From the NCBI GenBank assembly GCA_021157525.1, contig JAGGWK010000060.1, positions 11,293 through 75,292 of the forward strand: 64,000 nt of DNA, written 5' to 3'. The notes beneath the pieces are model-generated. The model was not told the origin of the DNA and did not search any database. It worked only from the letters and a program-made list of their open reading frames with translations. Positions 6,209 through 53,517 of the stretch are shown here, piece by piece. The first letter of the stretch is position 1; every line of letters starts with the position of its first letter. Made by a program: the position numbers and the translations under genes. Source of the stretch: Candidatus Cloacimonadota bacterium (GTDB taxonomy: Bacteria; Cloacimonadota; Cloacimonadia; Cloacimonadales; TCS61).

Positions 6209-6948
6209 GACGCACAATTCTGGGGCTTATCTGCATCCTGCCTGCCTTACTGATGGCACAACCTATGCAATATGGCAAGGCTCTGAATAATCTCAAAGGC
6301 ATCCGGCACTACAAAAAAGGAGAGCTGGAGCCGGCGGAAAAAAACTTCAGTGAAAACGCCCTCACTCATCCCGATGACGGACGGCTGCACTTCAACCTGG
6401 GAAACGCCTATTACAAAGAGGGAAAATACGAACAAGCCGAAGCGGAATATCAGTTGGCCGCAAAAGACAAAAAATTCTCGGCGCAATCACAAATTCAGCA
6501 CAACTTGGGAAACGTAAAATATCAGCAGCAGGATTTCAAAACCGCCGTTGAACATTATCGCAATGCCCTCATCGCCGATCCAAACAACCGAGAAGCCCGT
6601 TACAACTATGAATTGGCAGCAAAAAACTTGCAGCGTCAGCAAAACCAGCAGCAACAGCAAAACGATGATAACAAAAATAAAGACGACAAGGAGAAACAAA
6701 AGCAACAGCAGCAATCTGACGACCAGCAAAAACAGGATAAAGAAAAACAGCAGAAACAGGAACAACAGAAGCAGGAACAACAACAGAAACAGGATGCTCA
6801 ACAAAAGCAGCAAAAACTGAAAAAAGACGAAGAGAAAAAAGATGCTGAGCAATTGCTGGAAGCTCTCTTGGCCAAAGAAAAAGAAGAGATGAAAGAAGAA
6901 AAGCGAAAGTTGAACGTTGACAAATCGAAATCCGGTAAATATTGGTAA
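6205..6948 (+). CDS. batC: BatC-like TPR protein with Q/K-rich low-complexity C-terminal tail
   Basis: signal peptide, TPR repeats (GNAYYKEGKYEQA..), then about 100 aa of Q/K/D/E low-complexity; start ATG 6205 after GAGGAG. Confidence 0.75.
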   Translation: MRRTILGLICILPALLMAQPMQYGKALNNLKGIRHYKKGELEPAEKNFSENALTHPDDGRLHFNLGNAYYKEGKYEQAEAEYQLAAKDKKFSAQSQIQHNLGNVKYQQQDFKTAVEHYRNALIADPNNREARYNYELAAKNLQRQQNQQQQQNDDNKNKDDKEKQKQQQQSDDQQKQDKEKQQKQEQQKQEQQQKQDAQQKQQKLKKDEEKKDAEQLLEALLAKEKEEMKEEKRKLNVDKSKSGKYW

Positions 6949-6977: not shown

Positions 6978-8765
6978 ATGAAGCAACGAATCATCATTCT
7001 TTGGATACTGCTCCTTGCCTGCTCAGTAGCCTTTGGCGCCGAGCTGGAGGTACAGTCATACGTCGATCGCACCACTGTGGGTTTAGATGATTATCTGAAA
7101 TTCACCGTAGAAGTTACAGGATCTAAAGCGAACAAAGCTTCCATTCCCAGCCTCAGCGGTCTGAAGGGATTTCGGAATCTTGGCGCCTCCACATCGTCAT
7201 CATCCAGCTACTCGGTGGTAAATGGCAAAATGACATCCAGTGTTTCCGCCAGTACCACCTTCACATTACAACCTCTGGCTACGGGAGAGCAGATTTTACC
7301 GCCGGTGAGTGTGCAATTCAAAGGCAAAACCTACACCACCAAACCAATTCGCATCAAGGTAAAGGAAGGGAGCACAGAACCGGCTCCACCGGTTTCTCAG
7401 CAGATGCAGCAAAGGGGAAGCACCCATCAATCCTCGGATAAGTTAGCAGATAATATGTTCATTATCGCCGATGTTTCACAAAAATCGGTGTATAAATCTC
7501 AGCCCATCACGGTAGATTTTTACCTCTATACCAAGTATGATGTGCGCAATCTTTCTTTTGGTGAAGAGTCTTCTTACAGCGGTTTTTGGAAGGAAATCAC
7601 CTATACTCCCGACCATATTAATTTCCGCCGCACCACCTATGATGGCCAACTTTTCAATGTGATGCGGCTGCGCAGTATTACCCTGCTTCCCACCCGCAGT
7701 GGAGAACTATCCATTCCTCCTCTGGAGATGCTGATAGATGTAACCGTGCCAGCCCGCAGTTTCTTTGATTTTGGCTCCACCAAACGTTACACCATCCGCA
7801 GTAAAAAAATTCCTATAAAAGTGCGGGACATCCCTCTGGAAGGAAGACCGGAAAGCTACAGCGGCGCAGTGGGTTCGTTCACCATAAAAAGTGAAATCAG
7901 TGATACTCAAGTGAAATCCGGGGAATCCCTTACCTATACCATCACCATATCGGGTAGTGGAAATTTCAGCAATATCGAGCCGCCGGCTATGCCGGATGTT
8001 AATCATCTGCGCTTTGTTGAGCCGGAAATAACCAACGACGTTTCCAGCGGAGGCGTGAAGGGTAGCAAAGTCATCCGTTCTCTGGTGATTCCGGAAGAGC
8101 AGGGAACCTACACCATCCCAGCCCTGAGTTTTGCCTATTTCGATCCTCAGCAAAAAGCCTATAAAGTTCTCAAAACTGCTACTCACACCATCAATGTGGA
8201 CAAGGGTGAAACCCTCTACATCCCATCAGCCGGAGCTCAAAACGTGGTTCACATAGAAGGCGCAGACATCGGTTTTATTCAGATTCCCGACACGGTAACG
8301 TCTTTTCATCTTTACTTTGATGCAGCAGGATTCTGGCTCATCTGGCTTATTTTGGCTCTGTGCATTCCGGCAGCTGTGATCTTTGCAAAAGAGCAGGAAA
8401 AATTGCGTGGAAACCTGCATTATCAGCGGAAGCGCCTGGCTACACGCATCCTGAAGAAATACCTGAGACAGGCCACCGAATACGCACAAAACAAAGACAG
8501 AGCCTTTTACACCGCCGCTCAAACCGGACTTCTTACCTACCTTGCCGATGTGTTACACATAGCCCGCGGCAGTACCGCAGACGCAGTTTTGCTTGAGCTG
8601 AAAAGCCGTATCGATTCAGCAACGCTGTATCAGCGCACCAGTAGCATGATAGAGCGTTGCAACCAGGCGCGCTTCATGCCGGGAGGCTTTGCCAGCGAAA
8701 ACATCCCTCGGGATTTTGAATTGCTGAAGGAAATCATGGCCGACATCGCCAAACTGAAATTGTGA
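6978..8765 (+). CDS. batD: BatD (oxygen-tolerance protein)
   Basis: about 595 aa, N-terminal signal, C-terminal TM; BatD-like architecture and operon position. Confidence 0.75.
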   Translation: MKQRIIILWILLLACSVAFGAELEVQSYVDRTTVGLDDYLKFTVEVTGSKANKASIPSLSGLKGFRNLGASTSSSSSYSVVNGKMTSSVSASTTFTLQPLATGEQILPPVSVQFKGKTYTTKPIRIKVKEGSTEPAPPVSQQMQQRGSTHQSSDKLADNMFIIADVSQKSVYKSQPITVDFYLYTKYDVRNLSFGEESSYSGFWKEITYTPDHINFRRTTYDGQLFNVMRLRSITLLPTRSGELSIPPLEMLIDVTVPARSFFDFGSTKRYTIRSKKIPIKVRDIPLEGRPESYSGAVGSFTIKSEISDTQVKSGESLTYTITISGSGNFSNIEPPAMPDVNHLRFVEPEITNDVSSGGVKGSKVIRSLVIPEEQGTYTIPALSFAYFDPQQKAYKVLKTATHTINVDKGETLYIPSAGAQNVVHIEGADIGFIQIPDTVTSFHLYFDAAGFWLIWLILALCIPAAVIFAKEQEKLRGNLHYQRKRLATRILKKYLRQATEYAQNKDRAFYTAAQTGLLTYLADVLHIARGSTADAVLLELKSRIDSATLYQRTSSMIERCNQARFMPGGFASENIPRDFELLKEIMADIAKLKL

Positions 8766-8772
8766 GGAAATC

Positions 8773-9531
8773 ATGCGGAAATTAATGATCATCTTTACCC
8801 TGATACTCCCGCTTCTGGTGGGAGCCAACTCAACCATAGACACCGCTTTTCAGCGGGGTGTAACGGCCTACGAGAACCAGGAATATCAAGAGGCTCTGGA
8901 TATATTTTTACAGATTCAGGAGCAGGGCATCACCAATGCTGATGTGGCCTACAACATAGGTAACTGCTATTTTCGTCTGCAAAATATCGGCCTGGCAATT
9001 CTCTACTACAAGCGTGCCCTCCGCATCAATCCGGCCCACGGCCCTGCAGAGAAAAACCTCCGTTACGCCATGGAACTCACCGTGGATAAACAGCACCCCG
9101 CTACTGAGGATGCCTTCAGCAGCACCGTGTCGCGATCTTTCAATCGCATCCCGGCAAATGCCCTGGCTATCGCTGCGTTGATTCTTTTTGCGTTGATCGT
9201 TATCACCCTGTGCGCAATGATCATTTTTTGGCGGGGGCGTGAAAAATCGCTGCCCACCTTTATCCTCACCATCATCATCGTTTTCTGGATAATCGCTCTC
9301 TTTGGGGCCAATCTCAAGTGGCGGCAGTTTCATCATGATCCCACAGCGGTCATTATCGCTGACACAGTAATGGGCTATAGTGGCCCAAATGCAGAATACA
9401 CACGGGTTTTCACCATTCACGAAGGAATGATCTGCCAGATTGAACGGCAAGAAGAAGGCTGGAGTTTGATCAAATTGTCCAATGGTCTGGGAGGCTGGGT
9501 AGAGAACACAACATTTGCAAAGGTGCGTTAA
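8773..9531 (+). CDS. batE: BatE-like TPR + SH3b domain protein
   Basis: TPR repeats (ADVAYNIGNCYFRLQN), TM segments, C-terminal SH3-like GWSLIKLSNGLGGWVE. Confidence 0.7.
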   Translation: MRKLMIIFTLILPLLVGANSTIDTAFQRGVTAYENQEYQEALDIFLQIQEQGITNADVAYNIGNCYFRLQNIGLAILYYKRALRINPAHGPAEKNLRYAMELTVDKQHPATEDAFSSTVSRSFNRIPANALAIAALILFALIVITLCAMIIFWRGREKSLPTFILTIIIVFWIIALFGANLKWRQFHHDPTAVIIADTVMGYSGPNAEYTRVFTIHEGMICQIERQEEGWSLIKLSNGLGGWVENTTFAKVR

Positions 9532-9532
9532 T

Positions 9533-10069
9533 ATGAAAGAGATGCTCACGGTTCCAAATCTTTTGGGATTCGCCAGAATTTTGTTAGCTCCGGTCATTTT
9601 CTGGATGCTGATAACCGGAAATGATGCAACTTTTTATGTCATGGGAGCAGCTCTATTTACCGACCTTCTGGACGGCCTGCTGGCCCGGCTTTTGCACCAG
9701 ATCACCAACTTTGGCCGCATCCTCGATCCTATCGCCGATAGAATACTTTTCACCTTCGCTTTACTGGGTCTGTGCATCCGTTACAATTACACTGCGTGGC
9801 TGCTGTTCTTTAGCATCATCATTGTGCTCTACACCACGGTTTATATCGTGGTTCGCAAAGATCTCCAGCACTACGGCGTGCACCCAAATATGCTGGGGAA
9901 AGTCTGCGTGTTCCTCAATAGTTTCGTGTTGTGGGCTATGACTTGGGGGGTTTCATCCCAGTGGCTTTTAGCCCTTTTCACCCTGCTATTATTGATTCCC
10001 CAGTTCAATTATTTATTCATTTACCTTAAAATCAGACGGAATATCAATATTCGAAAAAAAGCTGATTAG
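9533..10069 (+). CDS. CDP-alcohol phosphatidyltransferase family protein
   Basis: DLLDGLLAR...GRILDPIADR motif (D-G-x2-A-R...G-x3-D-x3-D). Confidence 0.75.
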   Translation: MKEMLTVPNLLGFARILLAPVIFWMLITGNDATFYVMGAALFTDLLDGLLARLLHQITNFGRILDPIADRILFTFALLGLCIRYNYTAWLLFFSIIIVLYTTVYIVVRKDLQHYGVHPNMLGKVCVFLNSFVLWAMTWGVSSQWLLALFTLLLLIPQFNYLFIYLKIRRNINIRKKAD

Positions 10070-23945: not shown

Positions 23946-24033
23946 GCAGAAGTGGTGGAATTGGCAGACACGCAAGACTAAGGATCTTGTGCCCCTATCG
24001 GGTGTGCGGGTTCAAGTCCCGCCTTCTGTACCA
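23946..24033 (+). tRNA. tRNA-Leu (leuU-like; anticodon read as AAG)
   Basis: 88 nt, long variable arm, D-arm GTGGTGGAATTGGCAGACAC, T-arm GCGGGTTCAAGTCCCGC, G1-U72, encoded CCA; anticodon loop CTAAGGA. Confidence 0.8.
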
Positions 24034-30644: not shown

Positions 30645-30719
30645 ATGGTTGGGCTAGAAGGAGTTGAACCCTCACATACGGAACCAGAATCCGCTGTACT
30701 ACCATTATACTATAGCCCA
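30645..30719 (-). tRNA. tRNA-Gln (anticodon CTG)
   Basis: 75 nt, U1-A72 pair typical of bacterial tRNA-Gln, anticodon loop TTCTGGT, encoded CCA. Confidence 0.8.
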
Positions 30720-30727
30720 GAGAAACA

Positions 30728-30802
30728 TGGTTGGGCCGGGAGGATTCGAACCCCCGCATACATGGACCAAAACCATGTGTCTTACCACTTGACGACGGCC
30801 CA
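30728..30802 (-). tRNA. tRNA-Gln (anticodon TTG)
   Basis: 75 nt, U1-A72, anticodon loop TTTTGGT, T-arm GGGGGTTCGAATCCTCC, encoded CCA. Confidence 0.8.
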
Positions 30803-30825
30803 ACAAAACTTCTCAAAAATATAGC

Positions 30826-30916
<91 letters not shown>

Positions 30917-30933
30917 AAAATAGCAAAGATCAA

Positions 30934-31019
30934 TGGCGGAGGATGAGGGACTCGAACCCCCAAGGGCATAGCCCGGCGGTTTTCAAGACCGCTGCCTTAC
31001 CAATTAGGACTAATCCTCC
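30934..31019 (-). tRNA. tRNA-Ser (anticodon TGA)
   Basis: 86 nt, long variable arm, anticodon loop CTTGAAA, T-arm GGGGGTTCGAGTCCCTC, encoded CCA. Confidence 0.75.
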
Positions 31020-37012: not shown

Positions 37013-37087
37013 AAGCAGTTTCATGATATCATGAAACTATATCGAGACAGGAAAACGGTGTGAACGTGACTTTAAAAATGTAAAAAA

Positions 37088-37301
37088 GGGGCCGTCCCGC
37101 AACCGCAAAACTGAGACCTCTACTCTCCATGCCTGCGGCAGGTCGCCGCACAAGTCCGCTTCCGTCTTCGTTCATTGTAACACATGAACTACGACGCGAA
37201 AAGACGATCCGATGTGACAGCGACTTGGAGAGAGGCTCAAAACGAAGATTTCAATCTCGAATCTCGATTTTCTTGTTCTTCTCTCGGTTGTGGGACGACC
37301 C
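37088..37301. repeat. about 210-bp repeat element copy 1 with 17-bp terminal inverted repeats (MITE-like or structured RNA)
   Basis: left arm GGGCCGTCCCGCAACCG vs right arm CGGTTGTGGGACGACCC; internal core CTGAGACCTCTACTCTCCAT...TGACAGCGACTT...TTCTCTCGGTT shared with copy at 52689-52892. Confidence 0.7.
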
Positions 37302-37312
37302 TTATATTAATC

Positions 37313-38290
37313 CTATTTAAATTCCCAGACGAAGGGATCCGGGCTATTGAATACAAAACGTTTCAGATAGGAAATCATGGTGTGGAGATCATAACCTGCA
37401 GGCACCACAAAGTAATCGTATTTGGCGACGAGAGCGGCAAATTCGGCATTTTCCATGAGGGCTGCATCGACGAAATAGATACCATGGCCAGGAAGGCTTA
37501 AGTCGGATGCATCCGTTGGCTCCACCTGACGATACAACACAACGTCCTGCTCTTTCAGCAGCTCTTCTTTGAGATGAGAAAAGTATTGGCCGTTGGATGG
37601 AGTAGCCAACACCACCAGTTGCTGCCCTGGTCGGAAGACATCAATGAGACGCTGTTGTTCCTCTGGAGCACTGGTGTCGGAAAGACCTGCCAGACCCCGC
37701 ACACCGCTCACGATAAACCATAGGGCAATAAGCACCGAGGCGATGCGTCCGATGAGTTTCAGCTCTTTTACTTTACTGAAAAAACCCACAAATCCCATGG
37801 GAACGAGGTATAATGTGGTGCCCAGAAAAAAGCCGAAAAAGAGGGTTGCGCCGTTTATGGGCCCCCCGAGATTCACCGCTTTTGAGAGAGCAATAAGAAA
37901 GGATGGACAGAAATTTACTCCCGTGAGCACCCCCAGCAAAAAAGCGCTTTTGGTGATGTTTGCCATCTTCGGAATGTGACATTTTTTTGCTTTTTGATGG
38001 GATCGTACTGCGGTGAGCAGCAGATACAATGAGAGTAAAATATAGGCAATGGATGTGAAAAACGTTCGGTTGATTTCGGTGATATTTTTGCCCAGATAGC
38101 CAGCGACAGCACCAAACGCCAAGTAGGTAAAGAAGCGGCCCAGAGAAATTTCCATTACCGCAAGGAAGGTTTTACCCACTTTTTTGTCATCGCTCAGGAG
38201 ATAGGGCAGGTAAATGGGTGAGCAGGTTGCCAGACACACCACCCCCGTGGCCAGTCCTAAACCCCAGCCTTCGATCAAACTTTGTATCAT
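37313..38290 (-). CDS. DsbD/CcdA-like (DsbD_2-type) polytopic membrane protein with cysteine motifs in TM helices and C-terminal soluble domain
   Basis: 325 aa; TM1 LATCSPIYLPYL resembles CcdA SPCxLPxxP, TM4 GVNFCPSFL resembles the second CcdA Cys motif; about 120-aa C-terminal hydrophilic domain; last gene of ferredoxin operon. Confidence 0.45.
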   Translation of the reverse strand: MIQSLIEGWGLGLATGVVCLATCSPIYLPYLLSDDKKVGKTFLAVMEISLGRFFTYLAFGAVAGYLGKNITEINRTFFTSIAYILLSLYLLLTAVRSHQKAKKCHIPKMANITKSAFLLGVLTGVNFCPSFLIALSKAVNLGGPINGATLFFGFFLGTTLYLVPMGFVGFFSKVKELKLIGRIASVLIALWFIVSGVRGLAGLSDTSAPEEQQRLIDVFRPGQQLVVLATPSNGQYFSHLKEELLKEQDVVLYRQVEPTDASDLSLPGHGIYFVDAALMENAEFAALVAKYDYFVVPAGYDLHTMISYLKRFVFNSPDPFVWEFK

Positions 38291-39938: not shown

Positions 39939-42416
39939 TTAATATTCTACTACTTTCAGTTTTATGGCATTTCGCGGACACCAGCTCACGCAATCACCGC
40001 AGGCTACACAAGCATCGGGATCGATGGTGGCATAGGAGCCGTGGTCAGTGATGGCATCTTCAGGACAGTGACTTACACAGTGGCCGCAGCCATTACAGGG
40101 GGGACGGTTTATCTGGTACACCAGTTTTCCGGCCGGAGAATTTGAGATTTCCGACGTATTCCCATTGTCGTCGGTGGTACGGATGGCGAAGTAGATAACT
40201 TCGCCAGAGTTCAGGCCATTCACGTCGCAGGTTTGTGATGATCCGCCAGCCAGTGGAGCCGGGGGATTGCTGAAGATATTGGCATCATCCCAGTTTGCAT
40301 CGGTGATGGGTTCATCCCAGTACCGGATGTCGTAAATCAGGGCTGTGCCGGTGGTTCCATCATCGCCGGGTGCCGTCCAGCTGATGCGGATAGTGCTGGC
40401 ATTGATTGCCAAACCGGCGACGACAGCCAAATCTGAGATGGTGGCCGGTGGCGTGGTATCTTCGGTAAGCTGGGCGATGGCAATGTTCGAGATGGCCGCC
40501 GCATTGTTATTTTCGTCATAGGCCTTGATGGCAAAATAGTAGTCCATTCCCATGGAGAGACCGGTTACCTGGTAGGTTTCGGCAGAGCCGGATGGAGCCG
40601 GAGCAGGTAGATTGGGCAACAGGTCGGCAGTTTCCCAGTTTGCCTCGGTAATCAGTGCGTTGGATGAGCGAATCTGGTAATGATCGGCAAGGCCGTCCAA
40701 TCCGTCATCTCCCACAGCGCTCCAGCTGAGGGTAATAAAAGAGTCACCTGATTCTGCCGCCAGATCGCCGATAGTGGCGGGTGGTGTAGTATCCTCCAGC
40801 AAGGTGGCAGAGGCATTGTTTGATGCTTCGGAGGTATTTTGAGAATCGTCGGTAGCTCTGATGGCAAAGTAGTACTGGATGCCAGGTTGTGGCACATCGG
40901 TAAGATAGCTTTGCACCGTGCCGGCCACTTGGGGTGCGGGTGGGTTTGGTAATGTGGTGGCATCCTGCCAGTTTGCAGTGGTAATCTGGTTTTCCGAGAT
41001 TTTTATCTCGTAGGAAACCGCCGTTCCTTCATCGCCGTCATCACCGGGAGCTGTCCAATTCAGAGTCATATCGTTCTGGGATGCCGTTACCGCCAGATCA
41101 CTGATAACAGCCGGAGGAACGGTATCGGGGATTTCGGTAGTTTCGCCGGATGGCACGTTGCTCAGGGACGATGCGTTCAGGGCGTCATCCAGTGCGATGA
41201 TGGCAAAATAGTAGGTAGTAAGGGGTTGCAATCCTTCTATCAAAAGTGCTTCGGTAGTGCCGGCTGTCTGAGGTACCATGTTTTGGGGGTAGGCTTCCAG
41301 TGCAGCCCAGTTGTCTGGTGTGATGACCTCGGTATCCACTTTGATGATGTAGGCCGATGCGGTTCCGATATTCTGGTCGTCACCCACAGCGGTCCAGTTC
41401 AGCAGGATGCTGTTCACCGATAGCGAGGCAACAGCCAGGTCGTCAATCGGTGCCGGCGCCATGATATCCCCGATGATCTGAGCCTGTACAACATTGGAGA
41501 TGGCGGCGTAATTGAGGGCATCATCGTAGGCGCGGATGGCAAAATAGTAGTTTTGCTGCAAAGGCAGATCGCTGATGATGAGGGTTTCGGCATCTCCTGC
41601 AGCAGCGGGAACCAGAGACTGGCTGTAGGTGGATGCATCCGGCCAATTGTCTGAAGTGATTTCCTGGGTGCTGTAGCGAATATCATAGCCGGCGGCAAGG
41701 CCTTCCATGGCATCGTCACCTACCGCTGTCCATCCCAGAGTGATGGTGGCTTCGGCAGAAGTTGCCGTAAGGTCTGTGATCTCTGCCGGAGCTGTGGCAT
41801 CGATGATCTCTCCAGCCACCAGGACCTGGCACACCGAGGTGCCGCTGGAGTGGTTCACCTCGTCGAAGGCTTCCAGTTCCACTGATATCTGGGCATTTTG
41901 GGGAAGATCCCGAATAATCCAGTTTTCTTCAAACCCGGCAGGAGAAGGTAGCGGAAGGATAAAATTGTAGGCAATGGGATTGTTCAACGTGTCCCGCAAT
42001 GTAAGGCCATATCGGAAGGAGTTGCCAGATGTTCCGTCATCTCCGGTAGCCACAAACTGTATCTGCACCACGCCGATGGAATCTGAAACGACGGAAAAAG
42101 AATCGATGGCGGCAGGAGCAACGACATCCGGGGTGGTGGTAAAGGCGTCTTCCGGACACTGAAATTGGTCAACACAGCGCATGCACTGTACGCATGCATC
42201 CTGATCGATATAAACGGTAAAGGTGCGGGGATCTTTTTTTATGGCGTCATAGGGACAGGAAAAGTCATCCAGACATTCGTAGCAACCCACGCATCGGGAG
42301 AACTCTACCCGAACCGGTTGTGAATCCGGCCCGACTTTCCGGGCATCATCACTACAGCTGATAACAGTAAAGAAAACAATGACTATCGCTACAACTAACA
42401 AAAAACTCTTATTCAT
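39939..42416 (-). CDS. large lipoprotein: N-terminal ferredoxin-like domain, six FN3-like repeats, C-terminal 2x[4Fe-4S] ferredoxin domain
   Basis: 825 aa from ATG 42416 (AGAGGA RBS); lipobox FTVISC; N-term CVGCYECLDDFSCP + CVQCMRCVDQFQCP; six about 105-aa repeats with WTAxGDDG...YYFAI; C-term CNGCGHCVSHCP + CVACGDCVSWCP. Confidence 0.7.
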   Translation of the reverse strand: MNKSFLLVVAIVIVFFTVISCSDDARKVGPDSQPVRVEFSRCVGCYECLDDFSCPYDAIKKDPRTFTVYIDQDACVQCMRCVDQFQCPEDAFTTTPDVVAPAAIDSFSVVSDSIGVVQIQFVATGDDGTSGNSFRYGLTLRDTLNNPIAYNFILPLPSPAGFEENWIIRDLPQNAQISVELEAFDEVNHSSGTSVCQVLVAGEIIDATAPAEITDLTATSAEATITLGWTAVGDDAMEGLAAGYDIRYSTQEITSDNWPDASTYSQSLVPAAAGDAETLIISDLPLQQNYYFAIRAYDDALNYAAISNVVQAQIIGDIMAPAPIDDLAVASLSVNSILLNWTAVGDDQNIGTASAYIIKVDTEVITPDNWAALEAYPQNMVPQTAGTTEALLIEGLQPLTTYYFAIIALDDALNASSLSNVPSGETTEIPDTVPPAVISDLAVTASQNDMTLNWTAPGDDGDEGTAVSYEIKISENQITTANWQDATTLPNPPAPQVAGTVQSYLTDVPQPGIQYYFAIRATDDSQNTSEASNNASATLLEDTTPPATIGDLAAESGDSFITLSWSAVGDDGLDGLADHYQIRSSNALITEANWETADLLPNLPAPAPSGSAETYQVTGLSMGMDYYFAIKAYDENNNAAAISNIAIAQLTEDTTPPATISDLAVVAGLAINASTIRISWTAPGDDGTTGTALIYDIRYWDEPITDANWDDANIFSNPPAPLAGGSSQTCDVNGLNSGEVIYFAIRTTDDNGNTSEISNSPAGKLVYQINRPPCNGCGHCVSHCPEDAITDHGSYATIDPDACVACGDCVSWCPRNAIKLKVVEY

Positions 42417-42770
42417 ACACCATCCTCTTTTTGCTATCAAACCAACATTCAGGTAACCAGAGAGGTGTCAAATGCAAAATTTCCGGTAAATCCGGAATAC
42501 ATACTTATGCAAGATGCCTGGAGAGGGGAACAAAGTATTTTCGTAAAAAATCTTAGATCCGGATAAAGAGTGTATTATTCACGCCACTGCTTTGTATTCA
42601 CCCGAATCCCGCTTCCAGAGCAGAGATCAATTATTTCTTGAAACGTTAGGAAGAGGTTTTGGACAAAACATAGCCTCCATTGGTAGCCCGTCCAGATCAT
42701 CCAGCCAGAGGCGATATCATGCTATTTAAGTAGATATTAACACCAGAATCCCCTTTTAGCTATCCAGAAG

Positions 42771-46881: not shown

Positions 46882-46888
46882 TTAATTT

Positions 46889-46935
46889 CCATCCCGCATT
46901 ATTATCACTGTTAATGCGGGATGGACTTCTTTATC
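46889..46935 (+). terminator. putative terminator hairpin after lon
   Basis: ATCCCGCATTA-10nt-TAATGCGGGAT stem followed by T-rich tract. Confidence 0.5.
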
Positions 46936-48138: not shown

Positions 48139-48216
48139 TGGGGTGGCTGAGGGGATTCGAACCCCCGACTCCAAGAGCCACAATCTTGTACTCTAACCAA
48201 CTGAGCTACAGCCACC
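48139..48216 (-). tRNA. tRNA-His (anticodon GTG) with encoded G-1
   Basis: 78 nt; extra 5' G pairing with C73, anticodon loop TTGTGGC, encoded CCA. Confidence 0.8.
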
Positions 48217-48229
48217 ATAAAATTACTTA

Positions 48230-48306
48230 TGGTACGCCAGCGGGGACTCGAACCCCAGACCTACGGATTAGAAATCCGTTGCTCTATCCAGCTGAGCTAC
48301 TGGCGC
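48230..48306 (-). tRNA. tRNA-Arg (anticodon TCT)
   Basis: 77 nt; anticodon loop TTTCTAA; T-arm GGGGTTCGAGTCCCC; CCA encoded. Confidence 0.8.
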
Positions 48307-48315
48307 ATAAAAAAA

Positions 48316-48392
48316 TGGTAGCGGCGCAGGGACTTGAACCCCGGACACTCGGATTATGATTCCGATGCTCTAACCAACTGAGCTACGCCGCC
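48316..48392 (-). tRNA. tRNA-Met elongator (anticodon CAT; tRNA-Ile2/lysidine not excluded)
   Basis: 77 nt; anticodon loop ATCATAA; no GGG/CCC anticodon-stem signature. Confidence 0.7.
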
Positions 48393-48406
48393 ACTCATTA
48401 AAAAAA

Positions 48407-48483
<77 letters not shown>

Positions 48484-51007: not shown

Positions 51008-52669
51008 ATGGCTTTAATGACCATGAAAGAGATGTATAGTCGCGTAGATTCAGCAATTACGCAACATCAGGATGTAAAGAATAACATACCCCGTACTGAA
51101 ATGATACGTGATGCTGTGGCTAATGGAGAAGCTCTGCCGGCGGCAAATGGTGCCCTCGCTACCTGGACACCTCCAGAATCTACCGGACGGAGCCCAAAAG
51201 ATACAATCACCGTAAAACACCCGGACTCATACCACAATATCGACTGGGATTCACCTAATAATTTGCCCCTGGAACCTTCTACCTTTGATATGCTGTTTGA
51301 AGACGCCCTGACCCTGATCAATAACAAAAAGACCCTTTACATCACAGACAGAGTGGTGGGAGCCGATTCCTCCTATGCCCTGCCTACTCGCGTCATTACC
51401 GATTGCGCACTCACCGCACTTTTCACAGATAATATGTTCCGTCCCGTACCCGAAGATATCGAAAGCAGCTGCTTCGCAGATAAACCTTTCACACTGATGG
51501 TTTTCCCCTATAATAAACTTCAGCGGGACCGCTACAAAGGCCTTCTGCGCACCATGCCAGATGGTCAAACATCCAACATGGCTGTTGCAATGGACTTCGA
51601 TCGCCGCATGGGTATTATCATCGGCTCCGCCTATGGTGGTAGCGTGAAAAAACTGATGTTCACCGTTATGAACTACTATCTGCCATTGATAGGCATCCTT
51701 CCTTTGCACTGTTCGGCAAATGAAGGCAAAGACGGCGACTCTGCTCTGCTTCTGGGCTTATCGGGAACCGGGAAAACCACTCTCTCTGCAGATCCAAATC
51801 GCGCCCTGCTGGGTGACGATGAGCATGGCTGGAGCAACGAAGGTATCGCCAACTTTGAAAACGGCTGCTATGCCAAACTGATCAACCTCAGTGTCCAAAA
51901 AGAACCGGAAATTTACAAAGCCGTCTTCCACGATGATGACTACCTCAAACATGGTTCCATCATAGAAAACTGCATGATGTACCCCAACGGACATTTTGAT
52001 CTGGATGATGAACGCCTGACACCAAATTCCCGTGGCTCATACCCCCTTACCTTCCTCAGCAATATCAAGCCATCATCAAAATCGGGACATCCCACGACCA
52101 TCCTCTTCCTCACTGCAGATGCAAATGCGGTAGTGCCTCCGGTATCCAAACTCACCGCACCCCAGGCAATGTTGTGGTTCCTCATGGGCTACACCAGTAA
52201 ATTGGCTGGCACCGAAACCGGCATCGTAGAGCCGGTATCAACCTTCTCGCGCTTCTTTGGTCAGCCTTTTATGCCCTGCAATCCAAACAGATATGCCACG
52301 ATGCTGGGAGAGAAAATGAAGGAACACGGCACCAACGTCTATCTGGTAAATACCGGATGGAGCGGAGGCCCCTACGGCGTGGGCTCACGTATGGATATCA
52401 ACCTTACTCGCAGCCTGGTAAATGCCGCCCTTACCGGAGAACTGGAAAAAGTAGATTACCGCGAGGATACGCTGTTGCACATCATGGTACCTACCTCCTG
52501 CCCAGGAGTGGATGCCACTATCCTGAACCCCAGAAACACCTGGGAAGACAAAGCTGCTTTTGATGCTCGCGCACAAAAACTGGCTCAAGACTTCAGTGAT
52601 TATTTCGACAAAGCCTACGGCAATAAAGAGCTGGATCCCGCTATTGTAGCTCAATGCCCGGGAAAATAG
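51008..52669 (+). CDS. pckA: phosphoenolpyruvate carboxykinase (ATP)
   Basis: kinase-1a loop GLSGTGKTTLS, PCK signature; start at ATG 51008 after GGAGGAG. Confidence 0.9.
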   Translation: MALMTMKEMYSRVDSAITQHQDVKNNIPRTEMIRDAVANGEALPAANGALATWTPPESTGRSPKDTITVKHPDSYHNIDWDSPNNLPLEPSTFDMLFEDALTLINNKKTLYITDRVVGADSSYALPTRVITDCALTALFTDNMFRPVPEDIESSCFADKPFTLMVFPYNKLQRDRYKGLLRTMPDGQTSNMAVAMDFDRRMGIIIGSAYGGSVKKLMFTVMNYYLPLIGILPLHCSANEGKDGDSALLLGLSGTGKTTLSADPNRALLGDDEHGWSNEGIANFENGCYAKLINLSVQKEPEIYKAVFHDDDYLKHGSIIENCMMYPNGHFDLDDERLTPNSRGSYPLTFLSNIKPSSKSGHPTTILFLTADANAVVPPVSKLTAPQAMLWFLMGYTSKLAGTETGIVEPVSTFSRFFGQPFMPCNPNRYATMLGEKMKEHGTNVYLVNTGWSGGPYGVGSRMDINLTRSLVNAALTGELEKVDYREDTLLHIMVPTSCPGVDATILNPRNTWEDKAAFDARAQKLAQDFSDYFDKAYGNKELDPAIVAQCPGK

Positions 52670-52688
52670 GCAATACATCTATGAAAAA

Positions 52689-52892
52689 GGCCATCCCACA
52701 ACCGAAAAGCTGAGACCTCTACTCTCCATTCCTCAACGGAAGGTCGCCGTGCAAGTCCACTACGGTCCCGGCTTCTACGGCTAAAGCCGATACGCCGCGA
52801 CACAGCGGGGTGACAGCGACTTAGAAGTGGCGGCTTAAAACGGAAATTTGAATTTCTGCTTTTTTGCTTCTCTCTCGGTTATAGGATGGCTC
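52689..52892. repeat. about 205-bp repeat element copy 2 with terminal inverted repeats
   Basis: GGCCATCCCACAACCG ... CGGTTATAGGATGGC(TCC) arms; shares CTGAGACCTCTACTCTCCAT core with copy 1; begins 20 nt after pckA stop. Confidence 0.7.
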
Positions 52893-53073
52893 CTTTTTCT
52901 CTATGCTGAAATTCAATCCCATCTTCACTCCTTCTGGGTATCTGAAAAGCAGTAAATTTATGCGTAATCTTCCCCTAAAACGGTGTAATGACACCGGGCA
53001 GAAGACATTTTCTTTGACACAGCATCCCACCCTTCAAAGTGTTGCGCATGCAACAAAAAGGTGAGGGATAACA

Positions 53074-53517
53074 ATGTGGAGAGACAAAGCTGTAGCCTAC
53101 TGGATAAATCTGATTTCTCAGACATCCAGGACCCATATCGATCGGGAACTTGCTCCCCTTAAACTCAGCTCGGGAGCCTGCAATATCCTGATGGTGCTGT
53201 TTCGCCAAAATGGCATGTCTCAGCGGGATCTCTGCCGGATACTGCTGGTGCACAAGGCAAACATCACCAGGGCATTGCAGAAGCTTGAAAAGCAGGGATT
53301 TGTTCGCCGCAAACCAGACCCCTCCGACAGTCGCACCTACCGCATTTACCTTACGAACAAAGCCCATGACCAGCGAAGCAACATCAAGGAGCAACTCAGG
53401 GCCTGGGATATCCATCTGCGGGAATCACTACTGCCCCGGGAACAGGAAGAATTACTTCGATTACTCCGCAAGATTGCCAAATATCTGCATCCATCCAAAG
53501 CCGGTGACGCCTTATGA
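53074..53517 (+). CDS. MarR family transcriptional regulator
   Basis: 147 aa winged HTH (MSQRDLCRILLVHKANITRALQKLEKQGFVRR). Confidence 0.85.
   Translation: MWRDKAVAYWINLISQTSRTHIDRELAPLKLSSGACNILMVLFRQNGMSQRDLCRILLVHKANITRALQKLEKQGFVRRKPDPSDSRTYRIYLTNKAHDQRSNIKEQLRAWDIHLRESLLPREQEELLRLLRKIAKYLHPSKAGDAL

Follow-up and report, generated by a model that had tools for sequence, protein, structure and literature searches.

The window analysed here is a stretch of 64,000 nucleotides whose genes are all housekeeping genes. Matches to its PEPCK and MarR place the organism, which is uncultured and present in several NCBI, ENA, JGI and Logan assemblies, in the Cloacimonadota. The pckA gene ends with a TAG stop codon at 52667-52669, the ATG of marR, in the marR-matE operon, is at 53074, and the spacer between them holds one copy of a repeated element (copy 2; minus strand, 52684..52898, a span that includes its paired A/U (A/T) tracts). 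A further copy in the same orientation (copy 1; minus strand, 37085..37307) lies 15.6 kb away between two convergent genes, exbD and a tauE-like gene. The genes flanking the copies encode ExbD, a DsbD_2/TauE-like protein, PEPCK and MarR, and the two contexts (tonB-exbB-exbD / tauE-like versus pckA / marR-matE) are unrelated housekeeping neighbourhoods. The element is ~215-223 bp long, is closed by a ~26-bp inverted-repeat helix with A/T tracts flanking it, and is previously unannotated.

A first-pass annotation of the window had placed the second copy of a repeat flanked by inverted repeats in this spacer, and blastn, alignment and a covariance model confirmed it. The left arm (GGCCATCCCACAACCG) begins at 52689, 20 nt past the pckA stop, and the right arm ends at ~52892, 182 nt before the marR ATG (about 180 nt in the annotation), and is followed by TTTTTCT (52894-52900), all as had been described. 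The extent assigned to the element, 52689-52892, was correct as to place and widens to 52684-52898 when the paired A/T tracts are counted. The accompanying claim that the pair is not a local duplication also holds, given the 15.6 kb between the copies and their unrelated contexts.

Comparison of copy 2 with the window by blastn revealed two stretches that align with copy 1, a left one of 84 nt at 81% identity (E 2e-17) and a right one of 77 nt at 69% (E 9e-4). In a global alignment, 156/208 bases were identical, and pairwise identity is ~70-75%; the '81%' printed by the aligner for the two copies is a column statistic and not a pairwise identity. A covariance model run over the 64 kb with filters off found exactly two sites, copy 2 at 255 bits and copy 1 at 169 bits (its training alignment contained both scored copies), while all other matches reached at most 12 bits. 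The best of these non-self matches, a hairpin downstream of lon (46885-46930; 11.8 bits, E 0.05), was rejected as a related copy because its score is at chance level. Its stem is TCCATCCCGCATTA / TAATGCGGGATGGA, and it has CCATCCCGCA in common with an arm of the element.

The annotation had also described the copies as conserved at the ends and divergent in the middle, which is roughly right for the middle, where the copies defy alignment over ~50 nt (52757-52808) that nevertheless form a hairpin in each. The ends fit less well: the inverted-repeat arms differ between the copies by several substitutions, most of them pairing-preserving, and the longest run without any difference lies inside the element, a 20-mer at 52710-52729 in copy 2 and 37111-37130 in copy 1. 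We rejected this 20-mer as a functional motif, because its invariance is unremarkable at such divergence and a C>A change occurs within it in strain L039. The arms are nonetheless homologous between the copies, their G+C-rich outer part included, which argues that the closing helix is part of the element and not a pre-existing local terminator at each site. The sequence at the ends of the element is GGCCRTCCCRCAACCG.

Indels of 2, 5 and 7 nt separate copy 1 from copy 2, and the copies have no reading frame in common; on this evidence the element is non-coding. A search for miscalled ORFs over other copies, run in phmmer with the copy 1 open frame as query, returned only two low-complexity matches (E ~4e-4). 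A type I toxin was likewise rejected: the sole common AUG, in the 20-mer on the minus strand, would open frames of 16 aa in copy 2 and 32 aa in copy 1, with no hydrophobic helix.

We found no third copy in the flanking extensions of 7.6 kb (left) and 8.8 kb (right), i.e., there are two copies in the ~80 kb of genome examined. Rfam 15, in which 6S, Y RNA, riboswitches, omega RNA/HEARO and ribozymes are covered, gave nothing at the gathering threshold in either region, and at E up to 10 it gave only noise, topped by a snoRNA model at 13.7 bits. An exact 18-mer recovered the same locus (L010) and seven chance matches from metagenome contigs, and an exact 17-mer gave 12 chance matches among GTDB species genomes, none from Cloacimonadota, and no match in viral contigs. 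Because these scans require exact words, and copy 1 of strain L039 differs inside the word, they lend weak support to absence elsewhere. Comparison with phages and plasmids by blastn gave no match, and a literature search on Cloacimonadota structured RNAs or MITEs found nothing relevant.

A branched fold with a strand preference

The predicted parts of the element are listed in Table 1. Within the closing helix (P1), the core consists of the P2 hairpin followed by P3, which leads to a junction with P4, variable at its tip, and P5.

Table 1 Parts of the element, in window coordinates (copy 2 unless stated otherwise).
Part	Position	Strand	Description
Left inverted-repeat arm	52684..52710	-	3' strand of P1; ends in U5 (52688-52684)
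Right inverted-repeat arm	52866..52895	-	5' strand of P1; on the plus strand followed by TTTTT (52894-52898)
P1 closing helix	52684-52710 with 52866-52895	-	26 pairs (consensus structure)
Copy 1 arms	37085-37111 with 37275-37304	-	~26 bp
P2 hairpin	52837..52862	-	11 pairs; 100% of cells paired; 1 pair changed on both sides
P3	52822-52834 with 52715-52728	-	Consensus structure
Invariant 20-mer	52710..52729	-	Plus strand CTGAGACCTCTACTCTCCAT; holds the 3' strand of P3
P4	52811-52820 with 52743-52753	-	100% paired; P4 and its extension span 52743..52820
P4 variable extension hairpin	52757-52808	-	Long irregular hairpin in the independent MFE fold of each copy
P5 hairpin	52729..52741	-	4 pairs; 1 pair changed on both sides, pairing kept

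Both strands of both copies were far more stable than dinucleotide shuffles. Copy 2 folds to an MFE of -93.3 kcal/mol on the minus strand (z -6.4) and -77.0 kcal/mol on the plus strand (z -4.0), and copy 1 to -93.1 kcal/mol (z -5.9) and -83.7 kcal/mol (z -6.0), respectively. The same layout of P1, P3, P4 and P5 emerged from independent minus-strand MFE folds of each copy, and an RNAalifold consensus of the minus strand (-82.6 kcal/mol, 80 pairs) matched the five-helix layout. Folding of each strand had been proposed in the first-pass annotation, and both strands do beat shuffles (z -4.0 to -6.4); the preference for the minus strand had been missed.

This preference appeared in several comparisons of the strands. 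RNAalifold on the same two-sequence alignment gave -61 kcal/mol for the minus strand versus -34 for the plus, and the covariance model scored copy 2 at 255 bits on the minus strand versus 21 bits on the plus. On the minus strand, all consensus pairs of copy 2 are either Watson-Crick (67) or G·U (13); on the plus strand, each of these 13 becomes a C·A mismatch. The G·U count of copy 1 is 12 on the minus strand versus 4 on the plus. Polymorphism among strains (copy 2 in ten strain-level versions, copy 1 in two additional ones) pointed the same way: stem transitions at 52746, 52818 and 37105 keep pairing on the minus strand only, none of the polymorphisms keeps it on the plus strand only, and the SNP at 52826 turns a U·G pair into C-G. 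Three transversions break pairs, two in the variable extension and one in P3. Since the minus-strand fold is the better one, the favoured strand is antisense to pckA and marR. The bias suggests that selection has acted on a 'sense' RNA of the element or on a single-stranded intermediate, and selection at the RNA level would concern either the present copies or the source copies from which they came.

The annotation had further suggested that the sequence is under structure-related constraint, and the comparison of the copies agrees with this. Consensus cells were paired in 95.6% of cases, versus 40-48% when partners were slid by 1-3 columns, and nine pairs had changed on both sides and kept pairing (5/9 within well-aligned helices), three of them pairs of P1 that differ between the copies. 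The covariation score was above that of all 500 shuffles. When the 62 observed substitutions were placed at random, the neutral derivatives folded to -63 +/- 7.5 kcal/mol, a loss of ~30 kcal/mol, whereas the real partner copy is at -93 kcal/mol, a value matched by 0 and 2 of 1000 simulations. A stricter test, with the structure taken from one copy and substitutions scored in the other, gave p ~0.03 for the whole element and was not significant outside the variable domain (12 kept and 10 broken, versus 11.1 and 12.7 expected). In effect, the copies provide a single independent comparison, copy 1 versus copy 2, and the structure comes from these very sequences. Within the species, polymorphic sites per 100 nt numbered 2.8 in the element, 3.4 in the adjacent spacer and ~1 in coding sequence. 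Stability has clearly been kept between the copies, and the present copies may be evolving almost neutrally.

Gene ends and orthologous sites

Both copies lie just past stop codons. Copy 2 starts 14-20 nt downstream of the pckA stop, and copy 1 lies on the minus strand 5 nt (37308-37312) past the stop of the tauE/DsbD_2-like gene (37313-38290), or 8 nt when counted from the first P1 pair (37304). No other hairpin lies between either copy and its upstream stop codon. On the minus strand, P1 is followed by U5 in copy 2 and U6 in copy 1; on the plus strand, it is followed by U5 in copy 2 and by a poor U tract (UUAUAUU) in copy 1. The order of A tract, stem and T tract means that transcription from either direction would meet a strong stem and then U residues. 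From this arrangement we infer a role in intrinsic termination from either side and as a 3'-end structure, in which copy 2 would end pckA on the plus strand and copy 1 would end the tauE-like gene on the minus strand. P1 went uncalled in a simple terminator consensus scan, since its stem closes ~160 nt and not a loop of 3-8 nt. Their contexts imply that copy 2 must form the 3' end of the plus-strand pckA transcript and copy 1 that of the minus-strand tauE-like transcript, so the element faces its host genes in opposite senses (antisense with respect to pckA and sense with respect to the tauE-like gene).

A palindrome and a small hairpin lie near the copies. A near-perfect 24-nt palindrome (CAGTTTCATGATATCATGAAACTA; 37016-37039), in which only the outermost C/A is unpaired, begins 4 nt past the exbD stop, between exbD and copy 1, and the scan called it terminator-like on the minus strand, where it is followed by CTTTTAT. 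Between the marR promoter and copy 2, the hairpin CGGTGT-AATG-ACACCG (52982-52997) has UUUU (52981-52978) directly after it when read on the minus strand. The latter (52978-52997) would stop minus-strand transcription arriving from further upstream.

A terminator role for copy 2 had already been proposed in the first-pass annotation, and relatives make it plausible, as they carry simple hairpin terminators after pckA and after the tauE-like gene. In L011 and L042 (PEPCK 85% for L011; MarR 61% for L042), the terminator AGCCCCGGAAATCTCCGGGGCTTTTTTT follows pckA, and the order is pckA, terminator, fer4 and AFOR genes, and marR-matE. In L046 (MarR 57%), gene order is as in the window and a plain terminator, CGCCCCGGTAAAGCCGGGGCTTTTTTTT, sits where the element would be, with marR ~125 nt further on. 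In L013 (PEPCK 75%), pckA and a terminator are followed by matE, with no marR. At the site of copy 1, L026 (tauE-like 75%) has GGCCCGAAGC...GCTTCGGGCC and T7 after the tauE-like gene. The covariance model with filters off found no match to the element at the L011/L042, L013, L046 and L026 loci. An apparent alignment of the L046 spacer, in which its terminator matched the right end of the element, was discarded as an artefact of T-rich sequence and not homology. To judge from these sequences, both copies occupy sites that hold ordinary hairpin terminators in relatives. The annotation had itself named the finding of the same sequence as ordinary conserved spacer in relatives as what would refute it, and the sequence is absent there. 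Within the species, the element is fixed in 10/10 contigs, and copy 2 is present in nine other strain-level contigs with 0-3 SNPs.

The pckA-marR spacer has also changed in gene content. L042, the nearest relative, carries genes for a ferredoxin and an aldehyde:ferredoxin oxidoreductase between pckA and marR (7737-9913); the window (52670-53073) is without these two genes, and the element is at that junction. The presence of these genes in L042, together with the lack of marR in L013, marks the pckA-marR spacer as a rearrangement hotspot.

The control region of marR, at 53010-53054, is shared by three Cloacimonadota lineages (L042 9936-9982 and L046 1594-1640 in the relatives). It consists of TTTCTTTGACA, a spacer of ~21 nt and the palindrome GTTGCGCAYGCAAC, and it contains a -35-like TTGACA (53014-53019) and a perfect 14-nt palindrome, GTTGCGCATGCAAC (53041-53054; GTTGCGCACGCAAC in relatives), which is probably the MarR operator. 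The annotation had considered that the element could carry a promoter or regulatory site for the efflux operon. This promoter role is unsupported, because the conserved TTGACA and operator lie outside the element, at least 115 nt to its right. For those annotating such genomes, the caution is that the element within the pckA-marR spacer holds no marR regulatory element or riboswitch.

Origin and competing explanations

The explanation that we consider best, and that we would give an even chance of being right, is that the element is a structured, MITE-like repeat, restricted to its lineage and present in at least two diverged copies, that ends in inverted repeats and serves as a two-way terminator module. 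Inverted repeats, fold, location at gene ends, absence in relatives, a possible target duplication and use in either orientation together fit this class. The element would most likely have arrived by transposition, in the manner of BOX, RUP, SPRITE, Correia, ERIC or QMITE elements, and recombination is a less likely route. A direct repeat of 5-6 bp, TCTAT(G), abuts copy 2 (left 52678..52682, right 52900..52904) and is a possible target-site duplication; an abutting repeat of at least 5 nt with 2 nt of slack has a chance probability of ~1%, and this one is seen at a single copy only, as no comparable repeat was found at copy 1. No transposase, reverse transcriptase or integrase is encoded among the genes of the window, nor a transposase in the extensions, and the window and extensions hold no autonomous IS with matching terminal repeats.

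The likeness to known MITEs (Coxiella QMITE2, Neisseria Correia/CREE, enterobacterial ERIC, and pneumococcal BOX and RUP) lies in the 100-250 bp length, in the non-coding, intergenic character, in ~25-bp terminal inverted repeats that pair in the transcript, and in a very stable predicted fold. Those MITEs also have short flanking direct repeats that decay with age, of which TCTAT(G) at copy 2 is a possible counterpart, and they can influence the expression of neighbouring genes. The element differs from them in several ways: Rfam and blastn against phages and plasmids gave no sequence similarity, two copies and no candidate parent IS are known, and the fold is a branched five-helix one with a one-strand G·U bias and not a simple long hairpin. 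MITEs are typically AT-rich, whereas the element is not (51% G+C, versus 48% for the window and 33-43% for neighbouring spacers). Published descriptions of prokaryotic MITEs mention inverted repeats at the ends, direct repeats that erode over time and transcripts with extensive base pairing; in QMITE2, the terminal repeats measure 23-29 bp, the direct repeats 7-9 bp and the core 113-145 bp (PMC10969869, PMC3049150).

SPRITE, a repeat enriched at the 3' ends of convergent genes and proposed to have been co-opted as a terminator (PMC3049150), offers a parallel for the function. Like SPRITE, the element is an interspersed repeat with a long duplex and then a U-rich tract just past coding sequences (PMC3049150). 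SPRITE, however, has an 18-bp stem with a small loop, whereas the element has a ~26-bp helix closing a structured core of ~160 nt; the two share no sequence similarity and come from unrelated phyla. A further likeness is to bidirectional intrinsic terminators between convergent genes, where copy 1 also lies: in both, a G+C-containing stem stands between an A tract and a T tract directly past stop codons, but canonical terminators have loops of 3-8 nt (the terminators of the relatives at these sites are of this simple type) in place of a ~160-nt core. Given this design of A tract, stem and U tract, two-way termination is the most economical function that can be inferred.

The strand bias and the branched, preserved core exceed what termination needs, and we therefore keep two readings in which the RNA or its fold matters in itself. 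In one, the main rival, the copies are paralogous genes for a stand-alone minus-strand small RNA of ~215 nt, ended by P1 and its U tract and acting in trans (e.g., by binding protein or RNA), and the adjoining 3' ends are incidental. This is possible, though doubtful. It would account for the strong minus-strand bias of the fold, the U5/U6 that follows P1 on this strand in both copies, the lack of coding potential, the G·U-compatibility of stem SNPs among strains on the minus strand, and a multi-helix architecture and stability kept at ~25-30% divergence. Transcription is its difficulty, since neither copy has a sigma-70-like promoter upstream on the minus strand (the consensus may not be that of this phylum), the minus-strand upstream regions of the copies are unrelated, copy 1 starts 5-8 nt past a stop codon and would require a promoter inside the coding sequence, and the hairpin and UUUU at 52997-52978 leave ~80 nt for a promoter upstream of copy 2. 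The element is also absent from the syntenic regions of the nearest relatives, was found in no other genome by exact-word searches, and is as polymorphic within the species as the neighbouring spacer. The broader reading that the RNA itself is functional, either as an undescribed, lineage-restricted structured ncRNA or in a mobile element that spreads through its RNA or single-strand fold and lands at gene ends as a two-way terminator, is in our judgement unlikely. IS110 bridge RNA / IS1111 seekRNA, retron ncRNA and omega RNA were rejected as identities, as no recombinase, reverse transcriptase or TnpB lies nearby.

It is more improbable still that the element is a complex terminator or 3'-UTR stabiliser that evolved once in the host, was never mobile, was duplicated at another locus by recombination or gene conversion, and is maintained for protection from 3' exonucleases and for blocking convergent transcription. 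Such a module would not explain a one-strand fold in copies that face their host genes in opposite senses, nor the abutting TCTAT(G) repeat, and a five-helix core of ~160 nt far exceeds the needs of termination; the points in its favour are that both copies sit exactly at terminator positions in place of the relatives' simple terminators, that A and U tracts flank P1, that no mobility genes are nearby and that the copies are fixed in all strains. A plus-strand cis-regulatory element of the marR-MATE operon (i.e., a promoter, operator or leader) is the least credible reading and highly improbable. Copy 2 does lie 182 nt upstream of marR on the strand of the operon. However, TTGACA and the operator (53014-53054) are outside the element and are conserved in L042 and L046, which lack it; the plus-strand fold is weaker, with 13 C·A mismatches; copy 1 faces a convergent gene and has no downstream plus-strand gene; and no riboswitch or leader family matched even at E up to 10.

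If the MITE-like explanation is right, the element would be the first small structured interspersed repeat described for Cloacimonadota, an uncultured phylum important in anaerobic digesters, and a clear example of a repeat that has taken the place of the terminators behind two housekeeping genes, pckA and that of a tauE-like exporter. The co-option as terminators of MITE-like repeats whose transcripts fold stably is already known, so the gain would be incremental unless the RNA has a function of its own. The covariance model and fold can be used on full genomes and metatranscriptomes.

Other features of the window include tRNA genes, in two minus-strand clusters of four (48142-48483 and 30649-31019) and one single gene on the plus strand (23946-24030). 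A minus-strand gene at 39939-42440 encodes an 833-aa protein with fibronectin type III-like repeats and a C-terminal 4Fe-4S ferredoxin domain, and its DNA contains four repeats ~336 nt apart (40504-41550). Finally, coding sequence at 6640-6840 consists of degenerate CAG/CAA/AAA repeats that specify a Gln/Lys-rich low-complexity segment.
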